From Dehalococcoidia bacterium (GTDB taxonomy: Bacteria > Chloroflexota > Dehalococcoidia > GIF9 > UBA5629), in assembly GCA_034429715.1 (NCBI GenBank), contig DAOUFR010000058.1, forward strand, positions 7,811 to 71,810: DNA of 64,000 nt, read 5' to 3'. The notes below the pieces were generated by a model. That model was not told where the DNA came from, searched no databases, and was given only the letters and a program-made list of their open reading frames with translations. Positions 5,076-40,243 of this stretch are shown here, piece after piece. The translations under genes were made by a program, and so were the position numbers. Within the stretch, counting starts at the first letter, position 1; each line of letters opens with the position of its first letter.

Positions 5076-5099
5076 TGCTTTGTATTTCAGCAGAGAAAA

Positions 5100-6028: not shown

Positions 6029-6044
6029 GATTATTATAATGGAT

Positions 6045-6065
6045 ATGAATGAATAAGTCATTCAT
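6045..6065. promoter_or_regulatory. candidate TetR operator: inverted repeat ATGAATGA-N5-TCATTCAT
   Basis: 8-bp perfect arms sit at 6045-6052/6058-6065, just downstream of the -10 element. A further TCATTCA half-site lies at 5992-5998 next to the -35 element. Confidence 0.45.
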
Positions 6066-6178
6066 ATTATTACAGTAAGAGATCAGTATGGTTATCAAAT
6101 TAACTAATTTAATCATCCTATTTGCTGGCTCTTCTAATCACTGTCGCAAATTATTATTTAAATAGGCAGGAGAACAAG

Positions 6179-7642: not shown

Positions 7643-7727
7643 GACTCACGATTTAATAGCGGATTACAGATACGAAGCAGCTTAATAATATTATAACCCA
7701 AAACATTGGTAAAAGGAGGATAAATCA

Positions 7728-19671: not shown

Positions 19672-19702
19672 CGTTTGACTCTGTGTGATACAAATTATGC
19701 AT

Positions 19703-21331
19703 ATGCGGAATACAGCGGTCCGGCTCTTGATACTGCCGGTTGTTTTCATATCAGCGATGCTGTGCGGCTGCGGCAGCCCCGCGATCGTGGGTTCACTGGT
19801 GAAGGTGCAGGCCGACAATGCTGTCGTCAACGGCGTAATCATCGATCAGGCCGGCTATATAGCTACCGGCAGCGGCGCGCTGGGCGACTCCACCTCTCTA
19901 TCTGTTGAGCTCAAGCCCGGGCAGAGCTACGAGGGCCGTTTGGTCTGCAGGGACAGTGAGAGGGACCTGGCCCTGCTTAAAATAGAGGCGCCTGAGCTCA
20001 AGTCGGCTTTACCGGGAGATTCGGACCTTGTGCACCAATGGGATGAGGTGACTGTGTGGGGATTCAAGCCCGGCGATGCCGCTCCGATAGAGTCAAAGGG
20101 CAGCGTGACTTCATTGCCCAAAGACGAGCAGATTACCTATTTACAGACCAACGCAGCCCTGGACCCATCGCTGGCGGGAAGCGCCGTATTGAACAAGGCG
20201 GGCGAGATGGTCGGCATGGTTTCATGGAATGCCGACCAGCCGGGTCGCGAAGGGTTCGCGCTGACATCCAACGAGATACAAAGAGTGCTGGATCAGGCCG
20301 GGGAAGCGGAATCCAACCCGCTTGCCGTCGCTTCGGTCGATTCTCCTTCGGTCTTCAGCGATCGCGCGGTGATATCCTGGCAGACCAACCGGCCGGCAAC
20401 CGGCCAGGTTGAGTTCGGATTAAAAGGCTCTTACGGTAACAAGACAGCGCTGGACGCGACCATGCTGAACACACATGCGGCCGTGCTGCAGGGATTGGTA
20501 CCTAAAACGGCCTATTATTTCCGGGTGCTTTCCGTCGACTGTTGCGGCAATGCTGTGGCTTCAAAGGGATATACGCTCACGACCACAGCGGCCGGCGCCC
20601 AGGCGGGCGAGTTCACGATCTCGAATGTTGACGTATACGATATTACCAGCACAGCCGCTTCGGTGAGATGGATTACCAGCAAACCGGCTACGGGCGTCGT
20701 CAACTACACTGCGGATAAAGAAACCGAATCCGACAGCGAAATGGACAATAGCTTTGTGTACGAACATAAATTCAGGTTGAACGGCCTGTATCCTCAGACG
20801 CGCTACAGCGTGGCCATCAAGTCCGAAACTGATTTCGATGAGTCTGCGCAACAGACGTTGAATCCTTTCACGACACCGCCGACCTCCCCTGTTTGCTGCA
20901 AGATGAATTGCAAGATACTGGATTTCTCTTTTAAAACTCTCCAGGGCGATGATTTTACAAACAAAGACATCGCGGGAAAGAAGGTATTTATTGTTTTCAC
21001 CAAGACCACCTGCCCGAACTGCATGAAGCAGGCTCTTTTCCTCAACGACGTCTATCGCGACTGGCCGAAGGGGACCGATATGATGATGTTCATGGTGGCC
21101 AGCAGCGAGAAGCAAGCTGATGTCGAGGAGTGGATCAAGAAATACGGACTGGTCATGCCCGTTTATATAGATCCGACTGCGAAGCTGGTCAGCGGGTGCC
21201 AGTTCAGGACCATCCCCACGGCGCTCTTCCTGGATACGGGATCGGTCATAAGGGATTATAAGAGCGGCGGATTCGGTAATAGAAAGGATATGGAAGCTGC
21301 CCTGAAGTATTTTTATGAACAAGAGCGATAG
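19703..21331 (+). CDS. lipoprotein with an HtrA/trypsin-like domain (apparently catalytically dead), 2 x FN3 domains and a C-terminal TlpA-like thioredoxin domain
   Basis: A lipobox (AMLCGC) is present. The trypsin-like region aligns to HtrA with the catalytic His replaced by Gly (YIATGSGAL) and the catalytic Ser by Ala (DPSLAGSAV), while the Asp is kept (RDLALLKI). Two FN3/PAP-N-like repeats (VISWQTNRPATGQVEFG..., ASVRWITSKPATGVVNY...) follow. The redoxin domain carries CPNC. Confidence 0.6.
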   Translation: MRNTAVRLLILPVVFISAMLCGCGSPAIVGSLVKVQADNAVVNGVIIDQAGYIATGSGALGDSTSLSVELKPGQSYEGRLVCRDSERDLALLKIEAPELKSALPGDSDLVHQWDEVTVWGFKPGDAAPIESKGSVTSLPKDEQITYLQTNAALDPSLAGSAVLNKAGEMVGMVSWNADQPGREGFALTSNEIQRVLDQAGEAESNPLAVASVDSPSVFSDRAVISWQTNRPATGQVEFGLKGSYGNKTALDATMLNTHAAVLQGLVPKTAYYFRVLSVDCCGNAVASKGYTLTTTAAGAQAGEFTISNVDVYDITSTAASVRWITSKPATGVVNYTADKETESDSEMDNSFVYEHKFRLNGLYPQTRYSVAIKSETDFDESAQQTLNPFTTPPTSPVCCKMNCKILDFSFKTLQGDDFTNKDIAGKKVFIVFTKTTCPNCMKQALFLNDVYRDWPKGTDMMMFMVASSEKQADVEEWIKKYGLVMPVYIDPTAKLVSGCQFRTIPTALFLDTGSVIRDYKSGGFGNRKDMEAALKYFYEQER

Positions 21332-21395: not shown

Positions 21396-23147
21396 TTAAG
21401 ACCTGAACACGAAGCTGAGAGCGCCTGCGAGATCGATAGTGTCACCATCTTTAATCGCCTGCCTGCCTGTGCCCTTGATGGAGGACCCGTTCAGCCTGGT
21501 GCCGTTGGTGCTGCCACGGTCCTCGATGTAATACTGGCCGTTTTCATAGGAGACTGTGACATGTTGCCTGGATATAAGGTCTGCCTTATCCGGGGAAACC
21601 ATGTGCTGGAAGTCCCTTCGTCCCAGCGGCGCGTCACCCGCCAGCGAAAGTTCGCTTCCGTTGGAGGCAACGAATTTGGCCGCTGGACCGACGGGTACCG
21701 GCGAGGTTTTGGGAGAGCCTGTTGCCGGCAGAGTGGCTACGGGTGAAGTGACAGCAGGCATCGTGCCGGAGCGCCCGCCGCCGTAATGAACGGCCTGCGC
21801 AGCAGGTTTCCTCAGCAGAAGGATGACTATGATTATGGCGGCTGCGGCCAGCAGCGCAACGAGCAGGATATAGGGTAGCCACCATGACAGCGTGCCATTA
21901 CTGCTGCCGGCGGTGCTGACCGGGTCGGTGGCGGTGGAGGCGGCTTCGGTTGTGCCGCTATAGGTGCCGCCGGTGTAATAGGTGCTGCCGACATAGGGCG
22001 CCACCGTTACCGTGGTGCTGGCCACCCCCGAGCCTGCGCTGTTCGACGCGGTAAGTGTATAAGTGGTCGTGTAGGCGGGAGTTACAACGTACACTCCCGT
22101 ATTGGGCACCGAGCCAACCGAAGGCGATATGCTGACATTAGCCGTGTTGTTGACCGTCCATGACAGTGTGGATGATTGCCCCGGCTGGATATAGCTGGGA
22201 TTGGCCGTGAACGAGCTGATCACAGGCGCATAGACCGGAGAAGGTGTGGACGGCACCACCACGACAGGATAGCTACGATAGTAAGGTGTTACCCATGAGT
22301 TGGAGTACCACCGGTACCCGTAGGGATAGTATGGTGCAAAGGGATTATACGGATTGTATGGTGGCCTGTGTGGTGGCGGTGGCCCAGGGGGCGGCGGCCC
22401 GGGAGGCGGTGGCCCGGGAGGCGGTGGCCCGGGAGGTGGCGGCCCAGGAGGTGGTGGTCCTGGAGGAGGAGGCAATGGTGGAGGTGGAGGAGGTGGCATC
22501 GGCGGAGCAGGGAAAGAGTCCGGTCCCGGCACCGATATCGGTGGATGGACTTGGACTGTAATTGGCGATGAAGGTGGCAGAGGGGGTGGCGGGAGCGCAT
22601 CACCCGCAGGTGGTTCAGCCTGGGCGACCTGAATAGGCGGCTGAAGCTCCTCAGACACCTGTTCTGAAGAGGTAATAGCAGGGTCTTCAATTGCAGAATC
22701 CTGCGATGGGACGATAGGCTCGGAACCGGTTGCAACCGTGGTCTCGATCACCGGTTCAGGCAAAGGTGGAGGTGGTGGTGCGACCAACTCGGTAGTGGAC
22801 GCAACCGTGGTCTCGACCACCGGCGCGGGCGGCTCAGGAGTAGATGTAACCGTAGTCTCGACCACCGGAGCTACCGGATCAGGTGCAGACGCAACCGTGG
22901 TCTCGACCACCGGAGCTACCGGCTCGGGTGCAGATGCAACCGTGGTCTCTGCTACCGGCGCGGGTGGCTCAGGAGTAGATGTGATCGTGGCCTCTTCCAC
23001 AACAGCCGGGGTGGTTGTCTCTGTGGCTATGGAAGTTTCCGATGGCGCCGGTGCATCGTCCGCAGAGGCAGGTATCAGCGGCAGCATTAAGACAGAGCAG
23101 ACAAGAAGCGCTGCCGCCAGGAACTGAACAATTTTTTTAGCAGTCAT
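21396..23147 (-). CDS. membrane-anchored FHA-domain protein with a repetitive Pro-rich ectodomain, an Ig/PKD-like domain, one TM helix and a C-terminal cytoplasmic FHA domain (583 aa)
   Basis: A signal peptide is followed by about five copies of the 15-aa repeat ETTVASAPEPVAPVV, then (PPPGP)x6, a Tyr/Trp-rich segment and an Ig-like domain. The TM helix is LPYILLVALLAAAAIIIVILLL. The FHA motif is GRR...ISRQH...GSTNGTRLNG. A GAGGAGG RBS is present. Confidence 0.75.
   Translation of the reverse strand: MTAKKIVQFLAAALLVCSVLMLPLIPASADDAPAPSETSIATETTTPAVVEEATITSTPEPPAPVAETTVASAPEPVAPVVETTVASAPDPVAPVVETTVTSTPEPPAPVVETTVASTTELVAPPPPPLPEPVIETTVATGSEPIVPSQDSAIEDPAITSSEQVSEELQPPIQVAQAEPPAGDALPPPPLPPSSPITVQVHPPISVPGPDSFPAPPMPPPPPPPLPPPPGPPPPGPPPPGPPPPGPPPPGPPPPGPPPPHRPPYNPYNPFAPYYPYGYRWYSNSWVTPYYRSYPVVVVPSTPSPVYAPVISSFTANPSYIQPGQSSTLSWTVNNTANVSISPSVGSVPNTGVYVVTPAYTTTYTLTASNSAGSGVASTTVTVAPYVGSTYYTGGTYSGTTEAASTATDPVSTAGSSNGTLSWWLPYILLVALLAAAAIIIVILLLRKPAAQAVHYGGGRSGTMPAVTSPVATLPATGSPKTSPVPVGPAAKFVASNGSELSLAGDAPLGRRDFQHMVSPDKADLISRQHVTVSYENGQYYIEDRGSTNGTRLNGSSIKGTGRQAIKDGDTIDLAGALSFVFRS
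22381..22470. repeat. 6 x 15-bp tandem repeat (GGCCCGGGAGGCGGT) encoding PPPGP repeats on the minus strand
   Basis: The repeat units are directly visible in sequence. Confidence 0.8.
22738..23025. repeat. about 6 x 45-bp tandem repeat (four near-perfect copies at 22801-22980) encoding 15-aa ectodomain repeats
   Basis: The unit gcaaccgtggtctcgaccaccgg[a/c]gc... recurs at 45-nt period and is in-frame coding within the FHA583 gene. Confidence 0.8.
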
Positions 23148-23176: not shown

Positions 23177-24724
23177 CTATATTTTAAAGGTGATACTCAA
23201 TTTATCGGCCAGCTCAATGACATCGCCGTCCACGAGGGGTTGTTTGCCGCTGTCGCGGATCTCCGAACCGTTGAGCCTGGTGCCGTTTGTGCTGCCGGGA
23301 TCCTCGACGTAGTATTTTCCGTCCTCATACCATACGTTGATGTGCTGCCTTGAGATGAACGATGCTCTGTCCGACGGCAGCAGTTTTTCAAAGTCCTGGC
23401 GTCCGAGCGTCCTGGTATTGCCGGCCAGCAGCATCTCCCCGCCGTCGGGCATGATAAGTTTGGCGGGAGGAGCTTCTGTGATGGATGTGGACGCCCCCGA
23501 TGTGCCCGCAGTCGATGTAGCGGCGCTGGATGTAGCGGTACCCGCGCTTGCAGCCGATGTACGTGGCGACTTGGGAGAGCGGGGCTTTTTCACCATCATA
23601 ACGACTATTATTATGGCGGCTATAGCCAGCAGCGCCAGAAGTCCGTAAAGAAGGTAGAAGGGTTGCTCGACGGTGACGGTAACGGCTGCCGTCTGCGTCG
23701 TGCCGTCGATATAAGTGGCGGTGAGGCTATATGTAGTCGTTTGATTGGGCGCTACCATCGCTGTGCCCACGGCATCGAAATTACCCAGCCCGTCGATGTA
23801 TACCTGTAAGGCGGCGGGAGCGTTCCATGAAAGCGTGGTGGACTGTCCGGACTGTATGGTGGGTTGCTGCACGCTCAACGCAGGCGGCACCCTCGGTATA
23901 ACGTTAATGGTGGCGGAAGACGTCACCGTGCTTCCCGAGCTGCCCGTAGCCGACAGTGTGTAAGTGGTGGTCGCGCCGGGTGTGACAGTTGTCGATCCGG
24001 ATGTCCCCACCGTACCTATGCCGGGTGATATGATAACGCTGCTGGCGTTGCTCGTGGTCCAGGTCAGTGTGACGGTTTGTCCGACGTCTATAGACGATGC
24101 ATTTGCGCTGAAAGAATTGATCACGGGTTGATAGATCGGCCTGGGCGACGGCCCGCTGTAAGGTGAAATGCTGCCGCGTGCGTAATTGAAGCTCAGAGTA
24201 CGCTCCGACCAGGAGAAGCCGGAGTTGTACCACATCTTCCAGACATAGAGCCCGTCGGGATCCCATGACTCAGCACTGAACGGCCCGATGCGCCATACGC
24301 CCGCGTAAGGCCTGTACCATCTGTAACACAGCCAGTGCCCGTAGGGCGTGGTCCCTGACGGATAGTATTCCCACAGGTAGAAGTACCCCGGGCCGTTAAA
24401 GGAAACAAGCAGGTAGCACAGGTCGTTACGATAAAGATTGTAGAGCGTTTGCCCGTAGCTGGTTACCAGGTAGGCGTTTACGATGGACCCTGCTGCTCCT
24501 GCCGGAGGGGATGGCGGCACCGTCATCTGAAGGCTGGGCCAGGTCTGGTTGTAAGTGTCAACACCGACCGGCGGCTCGACCATTTCCCCGCCTTCGTCCG
24601 GCGGCTGCCAGCTTTCATCGGGATTAATTGGCGGTGATGGCTGTGCCTGAGCCGGCGAAAATACTGCAGCTGCGGCTGATAAAACCATGCACGCGATCAG
24701 CAGCGGTAAAACTATCTTTTTCAT
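23177..24724 (-). CDS. membrane-anchored FHA-domain protein with the Tyr/Trp-rich ectodomain and two Ig-like domains (515 aa)
   Basis: A signal peptide is followed by the shared motif block (YFYLWEYYPSG...WLCYRWYRPYAGVWRIGPF). Two Ig/PKD-like domains follow (PVINSFSANASSIDVGQTVTLTWTT..., PALSVQQPTIQSGQSTTLSW...). The TM helix is LLALLAIAAIIIVVMMV, and the FHA domain is C-terminal. Confidence 0.75.
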   Translation of the reverse strand: MKKIVLPLLIACMVLSAAAAVFSPAQAQPSPPINPDESWQPPDEGGEMVEPPVGVDTYNQTWPSLQMTVPPSPPAGAAGSIVNAYLVTSYGQTLYNLYRNDLCYLLVSFNGPGYFYLWEYYPSGTTPYGHWLCYRWYRPYAGVWRIGPFSAESWDPDGLYVWKMWYNSGFSWSERTLSFNYARGSISPYSGPSPRPIYQPVINSFSANASSIDVGQTVTLTWTTSNASSVIISPGIGTVGTSGSTTVTPGATTTYTLSATGSSGSTVTSSATINVIPRVPPALSVQQPTIQSGQSTTLSWNAPAALQVYIDGLGNFDAVGTAMVAPNQTTTYSLTATYIDGTTQTAAVTVTVEQPFYLLYGLLALLAIAAIIIVVMMVKKPRSPKSPRTSAASAGTATSSAATSTAGTSGASTSITEAPPAKLIMPDGGEMLLAGNTRTLGRQDFEKLLPSDRASFISRQHINVWYEDGKYYVEDPGSTNGTRLNGSEIRDSGKQPLVDGDVIELADKLSITFKI

Positions 24725-24891
24725 ATCTATAAAGCACCTCCAGGTGATCGTGTATCTTTATTAAGTATAAGGGCACATTACACCCTCTGCTTGACCCTGG
24801 CCTGACAGGTTCCTGACAAACACCTGATAAAAAGGCGGATGCTCGGATTGAACCAGGTACCGGGCAGGGCCCTCATGAGGAAATAAAGAGG

Positions 24892-26004
24892 TTAATGGTT
24901 GGATCGGAACTTCAGACTGGCCTTGCCGGCCATCTCGATAACGTCCCCGTCTTTCAATTCCAGTGGGCCTGAGTCACGAATACTGGCAGCATTGACGGCA
25001 GTGCCGTTGGCGCTGCCCATGTCTTCGATGAAAGCCTTCCCGTCTGTGAAGCTGATCTTAAAGTGCTGCTTTGATATCATCCCCAGCTCATCCAGTCCCA
25101 GCGACCTGGCGACCTGGGCGCGTCCGATTATCTCGCTTTCTTCACCCAGGCGAATCTTCAATCCGTTGGGTAATTCCAGGACGGCCCTGGCTGTGCCGTG
25201 CAGCGGCGCTTTTGGTGTAATACCCGGATGCTCGAGCAATTCCACCAGCGGCTGCTGCGTCATATTCCGGGCGTAATTCTGTTCGCGCAGGCGGCGTCGC
25301 CCATACAGTGCCAGGAGCACAATGACGACTATGGCGGAAGGGGCAATCAGCAGGAAAAGGGGATTGGTTATAAATTTCAGCAGGTTGTTGTCCGCTGTGT
25401 CAGGCTGTTCAGGTGTCGAGGGGGTGGCTGGCTGAGCCGGCTCTTCCGTGCCCTTGACATAGTTCCAGAAGACAAGGTGGCTTCTCTGCGCTTCGCTGCT
25501 GCCTGCCGCCCATTGTCCGTTTCCGTAAAAGAAGAGCCTGTAGATATGCTGGCCCTCCAGCTCGTCCTCGCCCGGCCGGAACGGCCCGAACCTCCATCGT
25601 CCCTGCTCTTTCAACTGCCATTTGTAGGCAATCCATCTGCCCTGGTCATATCTGTCCGACGGATAGTATTCATATATATACAACCAGCCCGGCATATTGA
25701 CATCGACATCGAGGTACCATTGCTCGTCGCCCGTGAAGGTGTCGCCGCCTTCGGCGGATATCCCATGTATGGTCGCAACCAGATCAGGCGATTCGCCTGA
25801 AGGCAGTGCAGTAGTGCTGTGCAATATGAAATTAACGGGCGGCTTAATCTCATTATGCTGGGTATCATCCATGGGATCCGGTATGGTGAAGTTGTCGGTA
25901 GGCGCCCCCATGGCATACGCGCATACATGTGTGAGGGCTACTGCGCTGAGGGAAGCGAACAGGACGGCCAGCGCAAATATCAATGCCGGTACCGGCCGTT
26001 TCAC
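24892..26004 (-). CDS. membrane-anchored FHA-domain protein with the Tyr/Trp-rich ectodomain (370 aa)
   Basis: A signal peptide is followed by the shared block (WLYIYEYYPSD...WIAYKWQLKEQGRWRFGPF). The TM helix is LFLLIAPSAIVVIVLLALY, and the FHA domain is C-terminal. The GTG start overlaps the kinase stop (GTGA). Confidence 0.75.
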   Translation of the reverse strand: MKRPVPALIFALAVLFASLSAVALTHVCAYAMGAPTDNFTIPDPMDDTQHNEIKPPVNFILHSTTALPSGESPDLVATIHGISAEGGDTFTGDEQWYLDVDVNMPGWLYIYEYYPSDRYDQGRWIAYKWQLKEQGRWRFGPFRPGEDELEGQHIYRLFFYGNGQWAAGSSEAQRSHLVFWNYVKGTEEPAQPATPSTPEQPDTADNNLLKFITNPLFLLIAPSAIVVIVLLALYGRRRLREQNYARNMTQQPLVELLEHPGITPKAPLHGTARAVLELPNGLKIRLGEESEIIGRAQVARSLGLDELGMISKQHFKISFTDGKAFIEDMGSANGTAVNAASIRDSGPLELKDGDVIEMAGKASLKFRSNH

Positions 26005-27017
26005 TTAGATACCCCCACTTCTTTCACCTCGCATTCGTTTGCAGACAGAAGTGCTGACCGCATGGCCGTGGCGCTGGCAAATCTGCTGCCCGGTGAAAAC
26101 ATAATGGCCTGGGCCAGGCAGCGTGATGTCCTTGCCGAGATACCCGCCGAGATCATGTAGTCCGCCACCTTGCCGGCCTCGGTGTAGCTCCGCGGCCAGT
26201 TGGTGCGGATCAGCTCGGTGCACAGATCGTTGGGCTGTCTGAGCGTGAGCAGGTAGATACAGGTCTGCGCCAGGCCGCACAGGTCGCAACGCTGGTCGCT
26301 CTCGCCGCCTATGAATAATTCAGGTATATCGAAACCCTTGTTGGCTATCTGGGTGAAGGGATCCGTCTTGACCGTGTCCCTTTTCATGCTCTCCAGGCTT
26401 TTGGCCGTGCCGAAGTCGATCAGTTTGATGCCGCCGTTTCCGCTGAGCATGATGTTCTTGGGATTGACGTCCCTGTGCACAATACCCGCGGCGTGGATAT
26501 AGGCCAGGGCGTCCAGCGCCTGTCCGGCCCAGGCCAGGAGCTTCTGCTCACCGGCCGATGTCCTGGGAGAGGACGACATGACAGGTTCACCTGTTACGAG
26601 CTCCAGTACCAGGTGGAATTCCCCTTTGTAATAGAAATCATCAAGGTATGTGACTATATTGGGATGCTGCAGCCTTTTGAGGAAAGCGGCTTCCTGGCGT
26701 AGCTTGTCCAGATAAACATTGTCCATGGTGGTGCCCCTGCGGGGCGTCTTGATGATGCATTTCTTACCGCTGGTGCGGTCCCTGGCCAGCCAGATGTTTG
26801 CCATGCCTCCTTGTTTGAAGGCCGGTGCTTTAAGCTCGTAGCGGCTGTTGATGCGGTGCTTGCGTTCAGGCTGGGCCTGCTGTTGCGTCGGCCTGCCCTG
26901 GCGCCGGGCTGAGGCGTTCGCCTTGTGCCGCTGGACCGCCTGGATAATAGCCACTGTGACCGGTATGCTGGTGAAGATCAGTGCAAAGACTATGACAAAG
27001 ATGGTCGGATCGTCCAT
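26001..27017 (-). CDS. Ser/Thr protein kinase (Hanks-type, atypical motifs) with an N-terminal TM helix
   Basis: Subdomain motifs are present: ANIWLARD...KCIIK (Lys), HRDVNPKNIM (catalytic loop) and DFGTAK. The N-terminal TM helix is IFVIVFALIFTSIPVTVAIIQAV. The ATG overlaps the PP2C stop by 1 nt (TGATG). The track ORF is extended spuriously upstream. Confidence 0.8.
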   Translation of the reverse strand: MDDPTIFVIVFALIFTSIPVTVAIIQAVQRHKANASARRQGRPTQQQAQPERKHRINSRYELKAPAFKQGGMANIWLARDRTSGKKCIIKTPRRGTTMDNVYLDKLRQEAAFLKRLQHPNIVTYLDDFYYKGEFHLVLELVTGEPVMSSSPRTSAGEQKLLAWAGQALDALAYIHAAGIVHRDVNPKNIMLSGNGGIKLIDFGTAKSLESMKRDTVKTDPFTQIANKGFDIPELFIGGESDQRCDLCGLAQTCIYLLTLRQPNDLCTELIRTNWPRSYTEAGKVADYMISAGISARTSRCLAQAIMFSPGSRFASATAMRSALLSANECEVKEVGVSK

Positions 27018-27820
27018 CAGACTGTTTTTACCCCCGTCTTTGCCGACACCAGTGCCTGCCAGGAGGGGAGGCCGCCGGGTTGGGCGATGATAACCGATAT
27101 GTTGTCGGGGCCGCCGGCCAGGTTGGCCCGGGAGATCAGGTCCGCGCAGGCCTGCCGCGGACTCTGCGAGGCAAGCACCGTTTCCTCGATTCTGCCAGCA
27201 GGGAGCACCCCGCACAGGCCGTCCGAGCACAGCAATATGTTGTCCCCGGCATAAAGCTTGATTTGTATCAGGTCCGGCAGGCTATTATCATTGTAACCCA
27301 GCACGCGTGTTATCTCGTTGCGGCGCGGATGTGTCAGGGCTTCCTCCGCCGATATATCACCGGTATCTACCAGCTCCTGCACCACGGAATGGTCCGTTGT
27401 GACCTGAATGATCTCCCTGGTGTTGATAATGTAACAGCGGGAATCCCCTATGTGGGCAACGTACATATCCTGCCCTGTAATAAGGGCCGCGGTGAGAGTG
27501 GTGCCCATACCCTGCAGCGACTTTTCTGTTGCAGCTTCGAGGACGGCGTTGTTAGCCTTGCTGAAAGCCGAGGCCATCAGCGGCAATCCGGGCGCCGTCT
27601 GCCGAGCCAGCAGTCCGGAGATACATTCGACCTGGAAAATCCTGATAGCCAGGTCGCTGGCGATTTCCCCTGCTTCGTGTCCGCCCATGCCGTCCGCCAC
27701 CGCGAACAGACCGGCAGATACCGTACCTGAATTAGTATGCAGGTCGAAGGTGCTGTAGAAAACACTGTCTTCGTTGAGTTTTCTCACCAGGCCGGTGTCC
27801 CAGCCGTAACCTATCTCCAA
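27017..27820 (-). CDS. PP2C-family Ser/Thr protein phosphatase
   Basis: Metal-binding motifs are present (NEDS, FAVADGMGGHEAGEIAS, DG...D). An AAGGAG RBS precedes the TTG start. Confidence 0.85.
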   Translation of the reverse strand: MEIGYGWDTGLVRKLNEDSVFYSTFDLHTNSGTVSAGLFAVADGMGGHEAGEIASDLAIRIFQVECISGLLARQTAPGLPLMASAFSKANNAVLEAATEKSLQGMGTTLTAALITGQDMYVAHIGDSRCYIINTREIIQVTTDHSVVQELVDTGDISAEEALTHPRRNEITRVLGYNDNSLPDLIQIKLYAGDNILLCSDGLCGVLPAGRIEETVLASQSPRQACADLISRANLAGGPDNISVIIAQPGGLPSWQALVSAKTGVKTV

Positions 27821-27842: not shown

Positions 27843-28334
27843 TTAGCTCAACCGGAAGATGAGTGTGGCTCCCGGCTGTCTGGCCAGCTCTATACTATCT
27901 CCGTCCCTGAGAGCCTGCCTGCCTTTATGGTGGATATCGATATTGTTTACCCGTGTGTGATTGGTGCTTCCGGTGCCGTCGCGCCCGTGGTCCTGGACAA
28001 AATAAGTGCCGTTCTCGCGCGTAACGAGCAGATGCTGTCTGGAGATGCTCATCAGCGCATCTTGCGAGAGTTTGCCCTCGAAGTTACTGCGCTGAATGAA
28101 CTGGGAATTGTCCGCCAGAGTGATCTCCTCGCCTCCCGGCATGATCATCCTGGCCACGGCTCCCTGCGCTGCAGCTTCCGCAGCCTCTTCCATGACGGTG
28201 TCGTTGCTTGTACATTCCTTTTCGTCCGCCAGGTAATGCCCGCAGCTGTAACAGAAAAAGCTGCCGGCCCCGTTCAAGCCCTGGCAGGCCGGGCAGATGA
28301 CGCTGACGCTGATTACCTCTTCCATTACGATCAC
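27843..28334 (-). CDS. zinc-ribbon + FHA domain protein (163 aa), first gene of the kinase/phosphatase operon
   Basis: The N-terminus carries CPACQG...CYSCGH (4-Cys zinc ribbon), and the C-terminus an FHA domain (SRQHLLV...GSTNHTRVNN). Confidence 0.7.
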   Translation of the reverse strand: MIVMEEVISVSVICPACQGLNGAGSFFCYSCGHYLADEKECTSNDTVMEEAAEAAAQGAVARMIMPGGEEITLADNSQFIQRSNFEGKLSQDALMSISRQHLLVTRENGTYFVQDHGRDGTGSTNHTRVNNIDIHHKGRQALRDGDSIELARQPGATLIFRLS

Positions 28335-28483: not shown

Positions 28484-29167
28484 GTGGCTTTTATTATAGT
28501 CAAGAAAGGCGATGCCGAAGACATCGGCAAGATTTTTACCCTCAGGCAGGCTGCCACGGTAGTCGGCCGGCGTACTCCCCAGTATAAGCCGGATATCGAA
28601 TTAAACGACGAGGCGGTATCCAGACGGCATTGCGAGATACTGGAAAAAGAAGGCCATTATCAGATAAGAGACCTGGGCAGCACGAACGGGACCGTGCTCA
28701 ACGACGACAGGATACTGTCGGGCAGGTTATATGACCTGAAACACAATTGCAAGATCGGGCTTGGTATGGCAGTAGGGCCGGCGCATTCCCTTTTGATATT
28801 CAAAGAGACGGAGAGCACCAATTTACTGGGGGGAAAGGGGGCAGGAGCAAGCCAGAAAGCTGTAGCGATGGATGTTAGCTGGCTCAAAATTGATGAGGCC
28901 AAGAAAGAGGTGCATGTGGACGGCGAGCCTGTGAAACTATCGCGCAAAGAGTACGAATTACTTAGTTATCTCTACGAAAACGCCGGTGTGGTCTGCCTGC
29001 GCGACGAGATTATCAAAGCCGTATGGTTCGATAGTCTGGACCCGGCCGCCATATCGGATGCGACGCTCGACCAGCTCGTGCACCGACTGCGGGAGAAGAT
29101 AGAACCCGACACCGCCAACCCCACCCGCATTATCAGCCGCAAGGCCTTCGGATACATGCTGGTATAA
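28484..29167 (+). CDS. FHA domain fused to an OmpR/PhoB-type winged-helix DNA-binding domain (transcription factor)
   Basis: The N-terminal FHA domain is GRR...VSRRHCEI...GSTNGTVLND. The C-terminal trans_reg_C-like region is VHVDGEPVKLSRKEYELLSYLYENAGVVCLRDEI...FGYMLV. AGGAGG precedes the GTG start. Confidence 0.7.
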   Translation: MAFIIVKKGDAEDIGKIFTLRQAATVVGRRTPQYKPDIELNDEAVSRRHCEILEKEGHYQIRDLGSTNGTVLNDDRILSGRLYDLKHNCKIGLGMAVGPAHSLLIFKETESTNLLGGKGAGASQKAVAMDVSWLKIDEAKKEVHVDGEPVKLSRKEYELLSYLYENAGVVCLRDEIIKAVWFDSLDPAAISDATLDQLVHRLREKIEPDTANPTRIISRKAFGYMLV

Positions 29168-31178: not shown

Positions 31179-32429
31179 CTAAATGCCGCCCTCGATACAG
31201 TATTCCCGCAGTGTGTTAAGGGCTGCGAAAAACTCCTTCATCATGGTGCCCACCGTGTACATACCGCGCTTTGTGACTGAAATTATGCTGTTTTTCTCCT
31301 GGATAACACCGGCAATTTTAAAGAATAGCAGCTCCGCCCATATCCTGGCGTGGATATCCGAATCGAAGCGCTGTTTGAACTGCTGCGTGCTCAGGCTCAT
31401 ACCGAATAACCTGGTCAGCATGTAGTAACGGTATTGCTCGGTAGCGGAGAGATGACGTGTGCGGACTATGGGCAACCTTTCTTCCGCGATCAGCTTATGG
31501 TAGCCGTCCAGCGAGAAGGAATTGACCAGGAAATCGCCTCCCAGGAAGCTGACGGACCCGGCGCCGACGCCGATATAGTCATCGTAGTCGATGATATATT
31601 CGTCGATCATGAGGTCGCCGCGCGAAAAGCACCAGGCTGTCGAAGCTTTGTATCCGCCGTCCATCAGCTCCTGCAGGATTATCTCGTAATATTGCTTTTC
31701 GCGTTTGGTATCCACCCGGCGGAATTTTTTGGTCAGCGCATCCAGTTTATGTGGAGAGGGCATGAGCGGGTAGAAAGTGGCCTGGTCGGTGCCGAGGTCC
31801 TTGAAGATTTTTATATCGGAGCGGAACTGCTCCGGTGTCTGTGTGGGGAAGTTGAACATGAGGTCCACGTTGACCGTATCGAATTTGCCCTGCGCCAGCT
31901 TAAGCTTCTGTATGGAGTCTTCGCCCTTGAAAAGCGTCCTGCCCATGGCTTTAAGAAGGGAGTTATCGAAGCTTTGAACACCGATGGAAAGCCGGTTGAC
32001 TCCCATCTGTTTCAGCTGATCAACGGTGTCAGGCGTCAGCTCGCGCGGTGTGGTCTCAAGCGAGATGCGCCTGATCTCGAATTTCGATCTGAGGAAATCG
32101 ACGAAGCCGGACAGCTCGTCCATGAGGACGGTGGGCGTGCCGCCCCCGAAATAGAAGTCGTTGAATTTGAAACCCAGCGCGGCGTACAGGTCGACTTCCC
32201 GGCGCAGGTCTGCGAAGTAAGCGCGGGCTTGATCCTCCTTGAACAGGTAACGGTTGAAGCAGCAGAAGGGACACAGGGTGCGGCAGAAAGGGATGTGGAT
32301 ATAGAGGGATACCCTGTCCCCCCGTATAATGCCCTCTGAAGCGATGCGGGAAAGGTCCGCATCGCCTGTAAACCTGAGGAACTTCTGGCCTTCGTAGCGG
32401 ACGACCGAGCCGGCAAATAAACTGATCAT
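31179..32429 (-). CDS. radical SAM enzyme, HemN/HemW-like (oxygen-independent coproporphyrinogen-III oxidase family)
   Basis: The CxxxCxxC motif (IHIPFCRTLCPFCCF) sits in a HemN-like N-terminus, and a HemN C-terminal domain follows. Confidence 0.7.
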   Translation of the reverse strand: MISLFAGSVVRYEGQKFLRFTGDADLSRIASEGIIRGDRVSLYIHIPFCRTLCPFCCFNRYLFKEDQARAYFADLRREVDLYAALGFKFNDFYFGGGTPTVLMDELSGFVDFLRSKFEIRRISLETTPRELTPDTVDQLKQMGVNRLSIGVQSFDNSLLKAMGRTLFKGEDSIQKLKLAQGKFDTVNVDLMFNFPTQTPEQFRSDIKIFKDLGTDQATFYPLMPSPHKLDALTKKFRRVDTKREKQYYEIILQELMDGGYKASTAWCFSRGDLMIDEYIIDYDDYIGVGAGSVSFLGGDFLVNSFSLDGYHKLIAEERLPIVRTRHLSATEQYRYYMLTRLFGMSLSTQQFKQRFDSDIHARIWAELLFFKIAGVIQEKNSIISVTKRGMYTVGTMMKEFFAALNTLREYCIEGGI

Positions 32430-32480
32430 GTTTATTGAATGTGCAGCAGCTTAAAATTATCTGTGGTCGAGTTTACCAAG

Positions 32481-33089
32481 CTAAGCAAGCAATCCGTACA
32501 AAATGGTTTGAACCATTCTGTCCCCGGCAGCCGTTAAGTCGAAGCTGCCATCTTTTAAACACCATTCATACAGGATACCCCGATAACTCATCATGATAAA
32601 CCGGGTGATTTCCGTAGCGTCCGTATCGTCTTTTAGTATGCCGACTTTTAAACACTCATCTATCTGTTCAAGCACAGTATTAAACAATATGCCCCTCTCT
32701 GCTGCCATCACAGGATCTTTTCTGCCGGCGCTGATCTGACTCTGCATAACCACTTTAATAAAATCCACACCCAGATTGTCCATGTACCGGGATACAGATG
32801 CGCATAAGAATTTGAGCTTGTCGATCCGGCTATCTATTTCAGGTAGGACAGGAATTACTTCATCTCTAATTAATTTATTTATCGCCATGAAGTGCTCCAT
32901 GATAACCGCGTCTTTGGACTTGAAATGGATATAGAATGTCCCCAACGAAACGCCGGATTTTCTGCAGATCTCACTGATGGTAACCCTGTCGTATCCCTTT
33001 TTTGAGAACAGCGTAAGGGATGTCTGGTAAATCTTCTTGTGCGTAGCCAGCGACTGTTTTTTTCGATGAGTGGACTTTTTATTATTCAT
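32481..33089 (-). CDS. TetR-family transcriptional regulator
   Basis: The HTH is TLFSKKGYDRVTISEICRKSGVSLGTFYIHFKSKD. Confidence 0.75.
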   Translation of the reverse strand: MNNKKSTHRKKQSLATHKKIYQTSLTLFSKKGYDRVTISEICRKSGVSLGTFYIHFKSKDAVIMEHFMAINKLIRDEVIPVLPEIDSRIDKLKFLCASVSRYMDNLGVDFIKVVMQSQISAGRKDPVMAAERGILFNTVLEQIDECLKVGILKDDTDATEITRFIMMSYRGILYEWCLKDGSFDLTAAGDRMVQTILYGLLA

Positions 33090-33154
33090 GATAGGTACCT
33101 TCGCTATACAGTTAAACTATTATATTTGTAACTAACGTGAATTACAATTCAGGC

Positions 33155-33206
33155 TTGACAATATTTTGATAGTAGAATAGAATACATTCACTGAATATAT
33201 TCTATT
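33155..33206 (+). promoter_or_regulatory. sigma70-like promoter (TTGACA-17-TAGAAT) overlapped by the inverted repeat AATAGAATA-N13-TATTCTATT (candidate TetR operator)
   Basis: TTGACA sits at 33155-33160 and TAGAAT at 33178-33183. The inverted-repeat arms sit at 33176-33184 and 33198-33206. Confidence 0.45.
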
Positions 33207-33221
33207 ATTAGGAGGCTGTTG

Positions 33222-33974
33222 ATGGATTTGGGATTAAAAAACAAAACTGCTTTAGTTACAGGCGCCGGGAGTGGTGTGGGGCGAGAGGTAACGCGAGTGC
33301 TATGTTCAGAGGGGGCCATTGTTGCCGCTGCCGATATAGATTTGAAGAAAGCAGAGCAAACGGTTGAGTTGATGCAAGGTCTTAATGGCAGGGCGTTCGC
33401 CTATGAAATGGATGTGATCAACTGGAATAAGGTGCAGGATACCGTAGCCCTTTTTATAAAGAAAGCAGGTCATATAGATATTCTGGTCAATAATGCAGGC
33501 TATGGAGTATATAAGACCTTTGATACCACAACTTATGATGACTGGATGACCGATATCAATGTTAATCTCATCGGATCGCTGAACTGCGCAAGGGCGGTGA
33601 TTTCTCATATGTTGGAAAATAAATATGGGAAGATTGTAAATGTAGTATCCGATGCTGGAAAGACTGGTGAACGCTTTTTAGTAACTTATTCTGCGGCAAA
33701 AGCGGCCGTTATCGCTTTTGCTAAAGCGCTGGCGAAGGAAACAGGCAGGAGCAATATCAACGTCAATTGTGTTGCGCTCAGCAGTATTAAGACGCCGCTT
33801 ATTTTACCTTTTCTTACTCCGGAAGCCGAGAAGAAGATGATCAAGAGTTATCCGCTTGGTAGATTGGGGCTTCCGGAAGACCCTGCGAGTTTAATTGTGT
33901 TCCTGGCGTCCGACAGGGCGTCATGGATAACGGGGCAGGCTTTTTCGGTCAATGGCGGATATGCCATGGTTTAG
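33222..33974 (+). CDS. short-chain dehydrogenase/reductase (3-oxoacyl/3-hydroxyacyl-CoA reductase-like)
   Basis: TGAGSGVG marks the NAD(P) site and the catalytic YxxxK lies in YSAAK. Confidence 0.75.
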   Translation: MDLGLKNKTALVTGAGSGVGREVTRVLCSEGAIVAAADIDLKKAEQTVELMQGLNGRAFAYEMDVINWNKVQDTVALFIKKAGHIDILVNNAGYGVYKTFDTTTYDDWMTDINVNLIGSLNCARAVISHMLENKYGKIVNVVSDAGKTGERFLVTYSAAKAAVIAFAKALAKETGRSNINVNCVALSSIKTPLILPFLTPEAEKKMIKSYPLGRLGLPEDPASLIVFLASDRASWITGQAFSVNGGYAMV

Positions 33975-34002
33975 GCTTTCAAATAGAAGGAAGAAGGTTG
34001 TG

Positions 34003-35280
34003 ATGAAAGAAGTCTATGTCATTGGATCGTATTCAACTGTGTTCAAACGCTGGCCTGAGAAATCCGTAAAAGACCTAACAAGAATGGCTTATCTGGGAGT
34101 GCTTGAGGATATGGGGCTTGATGGTATATATCCTGAGAGTACCTGGTTCTCCAATTGCGGCTGGGGGCACACAATTCCAAGAGTGGAGGATGATCCGGGG
34201 GTGCTCGGTCAGATGAATATAAGGGGCCAGGTTGCCTTGGCACCTCTGGTGAATGAAGGATTATTTCCCAGACATATTCCGATAACAAACATTGAAAGCG
34301 CCTGTGCCAGCGGTTCGGTTGCGTTTCACGGGGCTTGGAGGGATATCCTTTCGGGAAATGTCGAAATCGCCCTTGCAATAGGTGCAGAAAAAGTATTTTT
34401 TCCGAAACAGCTGGCTAAAGTAGTGGAGTTATTCTCGGGAGGCATCGATGTTACTCGGGTGAGCGAGCTTTTCGAACAATATAAAACAGTCGGCGCCGAA
34501 TACGGAAAGGAATGGGCGGCATCTCCCGGCCATACGCTTTTTATGGATGTTTATGCCACACTGGCAGCCAGGCATATGAAGAAATTTGGTACCACGGTAG
34601 AACAGCTGGCGGTTGTTGCATCCAAGAATCATTTTCACGGCTCCCTCAATCCTCTGGCACAGTATCGGTTTGAGGTACCGGTTGAGAAGGTATTAAACGA
34701 TTATATGGTCAGCTGGCCTCTAACACGGTCCATGTGCTCACCTCTTGGAGACGGCGCTGCCGCCGCCATAGTCTGCTCCGATAAATTCTTAAGAAAGCTT
34801 CCAAGTTCGGTTAAAAAACGCGCAGTTAAAATTTTAGCCAGCGTACCGGCATCCGGATGTGAACACGCTATAGATGAGCCGTCGATAACTAACTGGGCAT
34901 CTCAAAAAGCTTACAAAATGGCAGGTATAAAAGCTGACGATGTGTGCTTTGCTGAAGTCCATGACGCTTCCTCCTTTGCTGAAGTCAATCAGCTGGAGCA
35001 ACTGGGATTTTGCCCATTGGGAACTGGGGGTACATATTCAGAAAGCGGTGCAACCAGATTTGACGGTGAAAAACCCATAAATACATCGGGTGGATTGGAA
35101 TCAAAAGGGCATCCGATCGGAGCAACCGGTCTATCTCAAATCAATGAAATCGCGATCCAATTGAGAGGAGAGGCGGGCAACAGACAGGTGCGGCGGCCCA
35201 AAATTGGTTTAGTTGAAAACGGCGGCGGCCTCATTGGCTTTGAAGAAAGCTGCTGTGTAATAACGATTTTGAGTAAGTGA
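34003..35280 (+). CDS. thiolase-like protein (SCP-x / nsLTP-type)
   Basis: It has a thiolase fold with an active-site Cys in NIESACASGS and C-terminal motifs. An RBS precedes ATG 34003. Confidence 0.7.
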   Translation: MKEVYVIGSYSTVFKRWPEKSVKDLTRMAYLGVLEDMGLDGIYPESTWFSNCGWGHTIPRVEDDPGVLGQMNIRGQVALAPLVNEGLFPRHIPITNIESACASGSVAFHGAWRDILSGNVEIALAIGAEKVFFPKQLAKVVELFSGGIDVTRVSELFEQYKTVGAEYGKEWAASPGHTLFMDVYATLAARHMKKFGTTVEQLAVVASKNHFHGSLNPLAQYRFEVPVEKVLNDYMVSWPLTRSMCSPLGDGAAAAIVCSDKFLRKLPSSVKKRAVKILASVPASGCEHAIDEPSITNWASQKAYKMAGIKADDVCFAEVHDASSFAEVNQLEQLGFCPLGTGGTYSESGATRFDGEKPINTSGGLESKGHPIGATGLSQINEIAIQLRGEAGNRQVRRPKIGLVENGGGLIGFEESCCVITILSK

Positions 35281-35303
35281 GTTATCTGAGGAGGAGAAGG
35301 AAG

Positions 35304-36860
35304 ATGTCGGAAAATGTCACACTGCAATTTTTACTGACTAATTCATTATTAAAATTCAGAGAAAGGGTCTTTGCGAAAATTGGTGATAATGAATATACCT
35401 ATCTTGATGTCCATCTGTGTTCGAATCGTATTGCTAACGCTATAAAGAAGGCAGGTTTTGGGCGCGGTGATTGCGTTGGCACGATATTGGTAAATGGTAT
35501 CGAACTGCTGAGTTGCGTGTTCGGTATCTATAAAGCCGGAGCTGCCTCAGTGGCCATGAACGTTATGGTAGGTGACAACGATATCGTTTACATTATTAAC
35601 GACGCTAAAGTCAATCTATTGATTATTGATTCAGCTCTGGTAGACAGGATTTTGAGTCTCAAGCCAAAATGCCCCACCCTGAAAAAAATCGTTGTTGTGG
35701 GCGCTGCTACGACTGACGGCTATACCTCCTATGAAGACTTTCAGAGCGGCCAGCCGGATACGACTCCCATATTGACTGCAAAACCTGATGACAATGCGGT
35801 GATTGTATACACGGGTGGCACTACCGGAAAGCCAAAAGGTGTGATTCATACGCAACGTTCGGGCTGGAATTTTGTAATCGCACAAACTGTAGGATTGAAC
35901 TGGCTGCGGGAAGACTCACTGCTGATCATGACTCCTCTGGGCCATGCTGTGGGCGCCATTATGTTTAGCGGAGCCACTGTGGGGTGCAAATTTATCATTG
36001 AGAAGCAGTTTGATCCGTTTAAAATACTCGAAATCATAGAAAAAGAGCGGGTTCAAAAGGTATTCCTTGTTCCAACCATTATCTATGTCCTTCTCGATCT
36101 TTTAAAGCAGAAAAAGTACGATTTGAGCTCATTGAACAGTATTTATTATGGAGCATCTCCCATCTCTGCCAACAGGCTTAAGGAGGCTATTGACCAATTC
36201 GGTCCCATATTGATGCAAAAATATGGCCAAAGTGAATGTCCCAATATGGTTACTACATTATCGATTGCAGACCATCTGAATGCGCTGGAAAATCCCAAAT
36301 TATTGCTTAGCTGCGGCAGGCCCGACGTCATGGCCGATGTAAAAATATTTGATGACAATGATAAAGAACTGAAAGTTGGTGAATTGGGTGAGATTTGTGT
36401 TCGAACGCCGTTTTCTATGAAAGGTTATTTGAATCAACCTGAATTGACCAGGCAAACGCTGAGAAATGATTGGCTCCATACGGGCGATATGGGAAGAATG
36501 GATGAGAATGGGTATGTATATATTGTAGATAGAAAAAAAGACATGGTTATCAGCGGCGGTATGAACGTATATCCAGCCGAGGTCGAAGGTGTAATAAGTA
36601 AACATCCCAAGGTAAAGCAGGTTTCTGTTATCGGCATCCCCGATGAAAAGTGGGGTGAGGCGGTAACTGCCGTAATCATTCCCGATGGAGATCTGTCCGA
36701 GCAGGATATCAAGGATTTCTGCCGAAATAAGCTTTCAAAATACGCTCAACCAAAAATTATCGTGTTCCAGGAACAGCTGCCACTCACACTGCTGGGTAAA
36801 GTCGATAAAAAAGCTTTGAGAGCTCCGTTCTGGAAGGGCGTAGAAAGGGCAGTGCATTAA
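35304..36860 (+). CDS. AMP-dependent acyl-CoA synthetase/ligase
   Basis: The AMP-binding motif YTGGTTGKPKGV and the C-terminal motif (GEICVRTP...KGY) are present. Confidence 0.8.
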   Translation: MSENVTLQFLLTNSLLKFRERVFAKIGDNEYTYLDVHLCSNRIANAIKKAGFGRGDCVGTILVNGIELLSCVFGIYKAGAASVAMNVMVGDNDIVYIINDAKVNLLIIDSALVDRILSLKPKCPTLKKIVVVGAATTDGYTSYEDFQSGQPDTTPILTAKPDDNAVIVYTGGTTGKPKGVIHTQRSGWNFVIAQTVGLNWLREDSLLIMTPLGHAVGAIMFSGATVGCKFIIEKQFDPFKILEIIEKERVQKVFLVPTIIYVLLDLLKQKKYDLSSLNSIYYGASPISANRLKEAIDQFGPILMQKYGQSECPNMVTTLSIADHLNALENPKLLLSCGRPDVMADVKIFDDNDKELKVGELGEICVRTPFSMKGYLNQPELTRQTLRNDWLHTGDMGRMDENGYVYIVDRKKDMVISGGMNVYPAEVEGVISKHPKVKQVSVIGIPDEKWGEAVTAVIIPDGDLSEQDIKDFCRNKLSKYAQPKIIVFQEQLPLTLLGKVDKKALRAPFWKGVERAVH

Positions 36861-36900
36861 AAAGCAACTTATCGAGATTAGTGGTTGAAGGAGTAATAAA

Positions 36901-38052
36901 TTGGATTTCACATATTCAGAATTTCAAGAATCCACCAGGAAACTTGTTCATGAATGGGTAGAGAACGAGGTTAGACCGGAGGAATATCATCGTTTCACTT
37001 CAGGCGTATGGGATTCTGCTTTATTTCGCCGACTGGGTGAACTGGGTATTTCACAGATGCTGTTCTCTGAAGAGTGGGGTGGCGTCAATGCGGACTATCT
37101 CACATGGTGCCTTGTTCTGGAGACTGTGGCTCGCGGCGATCCCGAGATGGCAGGTTGCCTGATGGTTACGATGGCTAATGCAAGGCAAGTTGTTGAGACG
37201 GCGACGGAAGAACAGAAGGCGGCCTTCAAAGATAAATACCTGACGCCTGTAATCAACGCTGAATGCATGTGTTCGGGAGCGATTACGGAGCCGGAAGCAG
37301 GCACTGACGTTTCGCGTATACAGACAAAAGCCAACCTTGTTGACGATAAATGGATTATTAATGGAGAAAAAACTTATATAACTAATTCAGGACTGGAGAA
37401 TAACGTTTTTATAAGCGTACTTTGTGTTACCGATAACAAAGGATCGAAAGAGTTCAATTACATCTTCGTACCTACCGATACTCCAGGTATCACAATTAAT
37501 CCTATGAGGACCATGTACGGTTCCAGTCATGAGCTCGGGCAGATATTTTTTAATGATTGCTGTGTACCGGCATTTAATCTGCTCGGTCAAAGGGGGAAAG
37601 GTCAAAAATATGTGGTGCGAGATGTTTTTGCTACTGCCAGGATAGGTGTCGCTTCTTTAGCACTGGGTGTAGCCGATGCCTGCTTCGAAGATGCGCTGAG
37701 TTATGCTAAAAATCGTATAGCGTTCGGGCGTCCCATCTCCAAGCATCAGTATATTAAATTTTCGCTTGCTGAAATGGCTCTCACAAATGAGTTGAGCAGA
37801 ATGATGCGGGATAAAGCTGCCATGTCTGTAGTGGGCGGCACTTATAACATGAAATTGAGCTCGATGTCGAAATTTTTCTGCTGTGAATCAGCCAATCAAG
37901 TGGCTTATAAAGCAATTCAGATACACGGTGGATTAGGCCTGATGGATGAAGTGCGCGTGTCACGGTTCTACAGGTTTGTCAGAGGAATGACAATCGCTGA
38001 CGGTACTTCGGAAATACAAAGACACATCATTGCGAGAGAACTGGATATATAG
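36901..38052 (+). CDS. acyl-CoA dehydrogenase
   Basis: An ACAD fold is present with the catalytic Glu region near the C-terminus (IADGTSEIQRHIIAREL). A TTG start follows a GAAGGAG RBS. Confidence 0.8.
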   Translation: MDFTYSEFQESTRKLVHEWVENEVRPEEYHRFTSGVWDSALFRRLGELGISQMLFSEEWGGVNADYLTWCLVLETVARGDPEMAGCLMVTMANARQVVETATEEQKAAFKDKYLTPVINAECMCSGAITEPEAGTDVSRIQTKANLVDDKWIINGEKTYITNSGLENNVFISVLCVTDNKGSKEFNYIFVPTDTPGITINPMRTMYGSSHELGQIFFNDCCVPAFNLLGQRGKGQKYVVRDVFATARIGVASLALGVADACFEDALSYAKNRIAFGRPISKHQYIKFSLAEMALTNELSRMMRDKAAMSVVGGTYNMKLSSMSKFFCCESANQVAYKAIQIHGGLGLMDEVRVSRFYRFVRGMTIADGTSEIQRHIIARELDI

Positions 38053-38071
38053 GTAATTACAATATATAAAT

Positions 38072-38884: not shown

Positions 38885-38989
38885 TTCCTGAGGCCATAAT
38901 ATCCAGGCCTTGTGAATCTGCCACGTGCTTTGGTGATATGGATTCCAAAAGGTGCACCATCATTTAGCTTTAATGAGGAGAACATTGTC

Positions 38990-40177: not shown

Positions 40178-40243
40178 ATGACCAGCGCATAGCCGAGCTC
40201 ATCTGAGAAATCGTACGTATTTGATCTGCATAAGCATATCAAG

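Follow-up and report, generated by a model that had tools for sequence, protein, structure and literature searches.

The window analysed here is a stretch of 64,000 nucleotides from a Dehalococcoidia bacterium (Chloroflexota; contig DAOUFR010000058.1, positions 7,811 to 71,810 of the forward strand). It carries a cluster of seven genes centred on Ser/Thr phosphorylation, three of which, here named FHA370, FHA515 and FHA583, encode membrane proteins that end in an FHA domain. The original prediction held that these three proteins share a Tyr/Trp-rich extracellular block. The three open reading frames (ORFs) are present as described, all on the minus strand and with the quoted peptides verbatim, but the interval 23177-26004 assigned to them covers FHA515 and FHA370 and leaves FHA583 outside. 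We show that the block is a genuine extracellular domain of some 110-130 amino acids in FHA370 and FHA515, membrane-distal to the stalk, which we call the head. The two proteins are laid out in the window as follows.

24892..26004, minus strand: FHA370 gene, encoding a signal peptide, the head, a short linker, a transmembrane (TM) helix and a cytoplasmic FHA domain (ORF and Pfam)
25450..25842, minus strand: head domain of FHA370, a "YEYYP" β-sandwich at about residues 55-185 (hidden Markov model, HMM, and AlphaFold model)
25303..25365, minus strand: TM helix of FHA370 at about residues 214-234, followed by GRRRLR (from the sequence; orientation presumed from the positive-inside rule)
24931..25128, minus strand: FHA domain of FHA370, residues 293-358, with the phosphothreonine-binding motifs GR…SKQH…SANGT (PF00498, E=1.3e-12)
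23177..24724, minus strand: FHA515 gene, encoding a signal peptide, the head, two stalk modules of about 80 amino acids each, a TM helix and an FHA domain (ORF and Pfam)
24173..24541, minus strand: head domain of FHA515 at about residues 62-184 (HMM, BLASTP and shuffle test)
23666..24139, minus strand: two β-rich stalk modules of FHA515, residues 196-353, probably Ig-like (sub-threshold Pfam matches: RibLong, E=1.8e-4, and I-set)
23210..23407, minus strand: FHA domain of FHA515, residues 440-505, with GR…SRQH…STNGT (PF00498, E=4.1e-12)

The blocks of FHA370 and FHA515 match each other by BLASTP with E=6e-16. Their Smith-Waterman score (BLOSUM62 local alignment) is 154, against 34.1±6.4 for composition-preserving shuffles (z≈19), and none of the 2000 shuffles reaches it. 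When an HMM built from 55 family members was run with filters off (--max) on the ORFs of all six frames of the window, only FHA370 (E=1.9e-46, aligned across residues 55-198) and FHA515 (E=2.8e-43) were retrieved. Aromatic residues of exposed type make up 23-35% of the head core windows, and one might argue that the resemblance is nothing but Tyr/Trp-rich low complexity. For FHA370 and FHA515 we give this explanation practically no credence: the shuffles rule it out, the family counts 64 members with position-specific invariant residues, and a fold of nine strands is predicted confidently.

A compositional explanation does apply to FHA583. The third, degenerate copy of the block that had been proposed in this protein was rejected, since its aromatic segment scores 27 and 40, values reached by 1219 and 474 of the 2000 shuffles. 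The family HMM, run on the same six-frame ORFs with filters off, gives no match in FHA583 even at E≤100, and a profile of the segment built from 33 FHA583-type orthologues aligns to the family profile with an hhalign probability of 0.04%. The resemblance of FHA583 to the head is thus one of amino-acid composition only, and makes this protein a cautionary case of how aromatic-rich composition can mimic homology. Its own features are two.

21396..23147, minus strand: FHA583 gene, encoding a signal peptide, Pro-rich repeats, a short aromatic patch, one stalk module, a TM helix and an FHA domain, and no head (ORF and Pfam)
22269..22364, minus strand: aromatic patch of FHA583, residues 262-293, not homologous to the head (shuffle test and hhalign)

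The patch is a separate short motif, WP…RW…, of about 30 amino acids, which is kept among the 33 orthologues. In the form WPxx…[RS]Wxx[YC][VI]…VVV it directly precedes the stalk module in loci L005, L009, L021, L033, L036, L045, L054, L055 and others, and it is aromatic in most lineages. Several lineages have a Cys-rich version in its place, CCRRCDPCCPCYPxCxWPCECRW, which may form a small knot stabilised by disulfides or metal. The ectodomain upstream of the patch (22365..23060, minus strand) is hypervariable Pro/Thr-rich low complexity, made of tandem repeats of the type APEPVAPVVETTV and of (PPPPG)n. In orthologues, L029 (12689-14017) among them, the corresponding region ranges from Thr-rich repeats to a run of about 90 prolines, which suggests a spacer of variable length.

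FHA370, FHA515 and FHA583 have the same layout: behind a signal peptide comes an ectodomain, which a single TM helix with a basic flank connects to the FHA domain at the C-terminus. Signal peptide, TM helix and basic flank together imply a type I topology, in which the block faces outwards and the FHA domain is cytoplasmic. The predicted placement of the block, extracellular and on the N-terminal side of the stalk, is thus borne out. The three tails pass the Pfam model PF00498 with E-values from 4.1e-12 to 3e-13 (47-51 bits, for a cut-off of 20.7), and the phosphothreonine-binding pattern GR…S[RK]QH…S[AT]NGT is intact in all of them. The stalks had been described as Ig/PKD-like, for which the only matches are below threshold (RibLong, E=1.8e-4). 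The proteins had also been taken for paralogs diversified by gain and loss of domains. They are indeed mosaic paralogues: the FHA tails are 43-53% identical, the first stalk module of FHA515 is 54% identical to that of FHA583 over 67 amino acids, and the head is common to FHA370 and FHA515. Yet, the same gene order is found in 27 loci, and the trio must thus be ancient and fixed rather than the product of recent local diversification.

To place the head among known proteins, we ran an exhaustive HMMER profile search over 1.84 billion (1.84e9) representative proteins at E≤1e-3. It returned 76 clusters, about 64 of which are true members, defined by a single N-terminal copy with a score of 30 bits or more; the other clusters are long repeat proteins that owe their totals to the sum of many weak matches (about 10 bits each). 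The alignment of 55 sequences (A3) has the consensus N.PG.lYiYEYYPpG..P.GHWl.Y.W....G.W..GPF.PE..EPEG.H.W., in which the Glu of YEYYP and the Gly of EPEG are invariant and P, W, G, G and P nearly so. FHA370 and FHA515 belong to this family by HMM match, by both invariant residues and by the N-terminal extracellular position of the block. A word-indexed protein search found only seven and three close Dehalococcoidia orthologues, single blocks that were often truncated or frameshifted, and brought nothing new when repeated with the 55-sequence alignment, because such an index is too insensitive for this family.

The original prediction could not assign the block to a known family, and neither can we. 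Across the 55 members no Pfam-A or NCBIfam family matches the head at E≤10, a sequence profile search of the PDB gives no match at the same threshold, and no profile link was found to CARDB, DUF11/DUF7507, Big_x, PKD, carbohydrate-binding modules (CBMs), DUF4384, PASTA, LysM or SH3b. By these profile comparisons the head is a bona fide, hitherto unnamed sequence family, new to the curated libraries searched, and could become a new Pfam/InterPro entry. Two links were considered and dropped. Kinship with DUF4384, which rested on a GY.Y.(5)G pattern, has no Pfam match even at E≤10. A link to DUF7507/DUF11 came from a protein of 1303 amino acids (P0036, E=8e-26), which turned out to hold ten identical repeats of about 10 bits each, with an hhalign probability of 1.3%; P0052, P0060, P0067, P0070 and similar multi-stretch matches were left out as summation artefacts of the same kind. 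Whole-sequence E-values can be misleading on repeat proteins, as the case of P0036 illustrates.

The block is not low complexity and folds confidently as a β-sandwich. AlphaFold2 models the head with a predicted local distance difference test (pLDDT) of 80.4 from a nine-sequence alignment and of 89.7 from the 55-sequence alignment, the latter with a predicted template modelling score of 0.84, nine β-strands and no helix. The two sheets superpose on macroglobulin (MG), CARDB, PKD and FN3 domains, as expected of the Ig-like/E-set β-sandwich with its 7-9 antiparallel strands. The fold is hence an ordinary Ig-like sandwich of the macroglobulin/CARDB type, not a new fold. The closest structures are MG domains of complement C3/C5 and of α2-macroglobulin, CARDB (3idu), PKD and FN3, all only 7-13% identical to the head. 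Unlike them, the head has no sequence-profile link to any of these families, carries a signature of its own (YEYYP…GHW…GPF.PE..EPEG.H), and occurs once, at the N-terminal tip, instead of as a repeated spacer.

These neighbours raise the question of whether the head is a divergent version of a known carbohydrate- or cell-wall-binding module, such as a CBM or a CARDB/DUF11-like or DUF4384-like domain, that sequence tools have missed. The fold matches include CARDB (3idu), CBMs (2c4x, 8wac, 6o14) and a GbpA module, and the wealth of exposed-type aromatics in the head would suit such a role. We nevertheless consider it highly improbable, as no Pfam family, DUF4384 and CARDB included, matches any of the 55 members even at E≤10 and the one strong link to DUF7507/DUF11 is an artefact.

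Conservation in the head peaks in two places: where strand 5 ends and passes into its loop (YEYYPxG..PxGHW), and where strand 7 does likewise (GPFxPExxEPEGxH). By antiparallel strand topology both loops should sit together at one apex of the sandwich. A conserved apex is what a binding site, rather than the fold core, would give; we regard such a site as putative.

In all complete members of the family a signal peptide precedes the head, which starts at about residues 45-75, and a stalk of 25-540 residues lies between the head and a single TM helix. They differ by their tails. Type A members have an FHA tail of about 130-160 amino acids; they make up about 33 clusters, among them all those with the best scores. 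Type B members have a tail of only 5-25 amino acids behind a long stalk of Big_3_5, CARDB or Filamin type. Type C members (P0059, P0063, P0072, P0076) end in a zinc ribbon of 50-105 amino acids. A scan for type A, with one genome per species, gave 57 loci, all in metagenome-assembled genomes (MAGs) of Dehalococcoidia or other Chloroflexota and none in cultured organisms; it was queried with alignment A1 and by design recovers the Dehalococcoidia clade only. The named type B members are archaeal (Thermofilum, Bathyarchaeia, Brockarchaeota, Thermoproteota), and one of their contexts is clearly so, with genes for proteasome, NOG1, SAMP and TtuA. Among named members the family appears confined to Dehalococcoidia and Thermoproteota-type archaea. 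Several MAG assemblies of long-read type (L001/L046, L047, L039) have receptor, PP2C or zinc-ribbon-FHA genes split by frameshifts, and this accounts for many short "partial" homologues.

The head-bearing genes do not stand alone. The order on the minus strand is zinc-ribbon-FHA, PP2C, Ser/Thr kinase, FHA370, FHA515 and FHA583, with a gene for an FHA-winged-helix protein diverging on the plus strand. The four remaining genes are the following.

26001..27017, minus strand: Hanks-type Ser/Thr kinase with an N-terminal TM anchor, IFVIVFALIFTSIPVTVAIIQAV (Pkinase, E=5.7e-30)
27017..27820, minus strand: PP2C phosphatase (PF00481, E=6.5e-15)
27843..28334, minus strand: soluble zinc-ribbon and FHA protein of ArnA-like architecture (FHA, E=4.1e-9; DZR weak)
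28484..29167, plus strand: FHA and OmpR-type winged-helix regulator, likely the output of the pathway (FHA, E=2.7e-17; Trans_reg_C, E=1.9e-18)

The kinase, read from the Met at nucleotide 27017, has 338 amino acids with intact HRD and DFG motifs. This start is the most likely one because its length matches that of the orthologues, about 340 amino acids. The longest ORF would run from a GTG at 27230 (26001..27230, minus strand) and overlap the PP2C gene by 214 nucleotides. With about five residues ahead of its only TM helix, the 338-amino-acid protein has no ectodomain and is thus no receptor-type Hanks kinase with a sensor of its own such as PASTA. The kinase start overlaps the PP2C stop by 1 nucleotide, and the FHA370 start overlaps the kinase stop by 4. 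All five FHA domains of the cluster retain GR…S[RK]xH.

Across the scanned loci, the 370-type gene is accompanied by the kinase in 50 cases out of 51, and the gene for the FHA-winged-helix regulator is syntenic in 47. The complete set of seven genes is found in 30 loci (26 of the 33 loci that are at least 15 kb long), with identical order in 27; the 583-type gene never encodes a head. Both head-bearing paralogues, 370-type and 515-type, occur together and side by side in 46 of 57 loci. The two types of head might form homo- or heterodimers through their conserved aromatic and acidic face, giving an obligate heterodimeric scaffold that joins two FHA tails and has no external ligand. Besides this co-occurrence, the idea accommodates the fact that the family-conserved residues are common to both types, but the archaeal and the zinc-ribbon-tailed members are single in their loci, so a partner paralogue is not generally needed. 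We find it quite unlikely.

Relatives with other tails bear on the association with signalling. The four type C contexts all place the head gene in or beside clusters of kinase, PP2C, zinc-ribbon-FHA, FHA and vWA genes, the parts of which are homologous to those of the window (PP2C 40% identical, zinc-ribbon-FHA matched over its full length, kinase at about 29%). These clusters (L059, 1-11100; L063, 600-11900; L065, 6700-13035; L064) are large, with several kinases, some of them fused to FHA, and two PP2C genes. In gene content they are an ArnA/ArnB-like kit to which a surface protein has been added. The head is a portable extracellular module, and its coupling to Ser/Thr phospho-signalling is seen independently on at least two occasions, one by way of an FHA tail and the other by way of a zinc-ribbon tail beside ArnA/ArnB-like genes.

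What could the head do in such a cluster? We propose that it is the extracellular binding or sensing part of a split receptor kinase, in which the FHA tail would dock on the kinase, itself devoid of a sensor, or on its substrates; we find this proposal about as easy to doubt as to believe. The head would bind a partner outside the cell, be it a ligand, a component of the envelope or S-layer, or the head of the sister protein. The FHA tail would dock on a phosphothreonine, either in the kinase or in one of its substrates, and the occupancy or clustering of heads would thereby be coupled to kinase signalling. The FHA-winged-helix regulator and the zinc-ribbon-FHA protein would be soluble phospho-dependent outputs, and the PP2C would reset the system. 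This scheme is the most economical one because the kinase lacks a sensor and its translation is coupled to that of a head-bearing FHA protein, and because the cluster has a dedicated FHA-winged-helix regulator. The earlier idea of a ligand-sensing module fits the topology and the gene context as a putative role.

The reality of the domain, its fold class, topology and distribution, the gene linkage and the intact catalytic and phosphothreonine-binding motifs are established here; ligand binding, the direction of signalling and the docking of FHA on the kinase are extrapolated from them. Several points weigh against a split receptor kinase. The fold is generic and points to no ligand class, and the surface placement of the conserved residues would follow from topology, not from coordinates. 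Signalling genes are nearby in none of the four informative type B contexts, which implies that the head is not intrinsically a signalling module. All the organisms are uncultured, and the literature offered nothing relevant on this cluster or on FHA-tailed receptors in Dehalococcoidia or Chloroflexi. Finally, FHA-tailed membrane proteins elsewhere, such as YscD of the type III secretion system and mycobacterial FhaA/FipA, are kinase-regulated scaffolds or substrates, not sensors. By analogy, information could flow from the inside out.

The main rival builds on this last point: the head would be an adhesin or a contact to the envelope or S-layer, and the kinase/phosphatase pair would steer its localisation, clustering or assembly via the FHA tail. 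Kinase-regulated FHA membrane scaffolds (YscD, Fha1, FhaA/FipA) are well known, S-layer and biofilm-matrix Ig domains (7ptp, 4be5, 8cka) are among the fold neighbours of the head, and the archaeal members, with Ig-type stalks (Big_3_5, CARDB, Filamin), a C-terminal TM helix, tails of 5-25 amino acids and no signalling neighbours, have the architecture of surface or adhesion proteins. Yet, a kinase devoid of its own sensor must receive its input from a partner, the conserved FHA-winged-helix transcription factor fits a pathway that runs from outside to inside, and the head is tightly conserved, with none of the diversification of adhesins. An inside-out or structural role is possible, although we lean against it.

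The cluster is best understood against systems with similar parts. The mycobacterial cluster fhaA-fhaB(fipA)-pstP-rodA-pbpA-pknA-pknB is likewise an operon in which a PP2C and a membrane Hanks kinase accompany FHA proteins, including a membrane-anchored one. Here, RodA and PbpA are absent, the kinase lacks PASTA or any other ectodomain, the FHA proteins have large head-bearing ectodomains with the FHA domain at the C-terminus, and five of the seven genes encode FHA proteins. In Mycobacterium tuberculosis, EmbR is an OmpR-type winged-helix and FHA factor that can be recruited to the phosphorylated Hanks kinase PknH. The window gene at 28484..29167 similarly joins FHA and Trans_reg_C, but in reverse order, with FHA N-terminal and no BTAD, and its partner kinase lacks a sensor domain.

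A third parallel is archaeal. ArnA and ArnB are soluble and are not known to have a surface receptor. The window gene at 27843..28334 has the zinc-finger and FHA architecture of ArnA, and the zinc-ribbon-tailed relatives of the head cluster with zinc-ribbon-FHA, vWA, PP2C and kinase genes; but the seven conserved Dehalococcoidia genes include no ArnB-like vWA gene and have no link to the archaellum. In Sulfolobus acidocaldarius, ArnA combines a zinc finger with FHA and ArnB has a vWA domain (PMC6509490). An analogy, and nothing more, can be drawn with plant receptor-like proteins, which signal via associated receptor kinases (PMC3426755): there too, ectodomain and kinase sit on separate single-pass chains that must associate. 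The proteins are not homologous, and association here would go through FHA and phosphothreonine. What is novel in the Dehalococcoidia cluster is that ectodomains sit on FHA-tailed proteins and not on the kinase, that the head family is unassigned, and that five genes of seven encode FHA; no new principle is involved.

One could go further and speculate that Dehalococcoidia and archaea have in common a split receptor-kinase system, in which the head reports on a peptidoglycan-free envelope of S-layer type, or on a ligand, through phosphothreonine docking of an FHA or zinc-ribbon tail, and which has been exchanged across the boundary between bacteria and archaea together with ArnA-like parts. 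We consider this extension unlikely. The result itself is a small, clean, unannotated ectodomain family tied to a seven-gene Ser/Thr-phosphorylation cluster. Dehalococcoidia, most of them uncultured, abound in the subsurface, and their environmental sensing is poorly understood. If the FHA-tailed proteins are sensors, they would represent a prokaryotic case of receptor and kinase on separate chains joined by phosphothreonine recognition, and the head, the kinase and the FHA-winged-helix regulator would provide a testable entry into signalling in these bacteria.

Scans of the window for tRNAs and Rfam families were empty. Adjoining the cluster, at 19685..21331 on the plus strand, lies a gene for a secreted fusion of a trypsin-like protease, two FN3-like/purple-acid-phosphatase-N modules and a thioredoxin/AhpC-like domain. 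Its synteny with the cluster extends to many Dehalococcoidia loci, and the two may be functionally linked. Two stretches of the window, 1..9200 and 32400..40200, have a GC content of 0.43-0.48, against about 0.55, with positive GC skew, and hold metabolic operons. Two HpaB-like enzymes, a 2-oxoacid:ferredoxin oxidoreductase and an FrhB-like protein are encoded in one stretch; the other encodes a short-chain dehydrogenase/reductase (SDR), a thiolase, an acyl-CoA ligase, an acyl-CoA dehydrogenase, an enoyl-CoA hydratase and a CoA-transferase. Both may be acquired islands.

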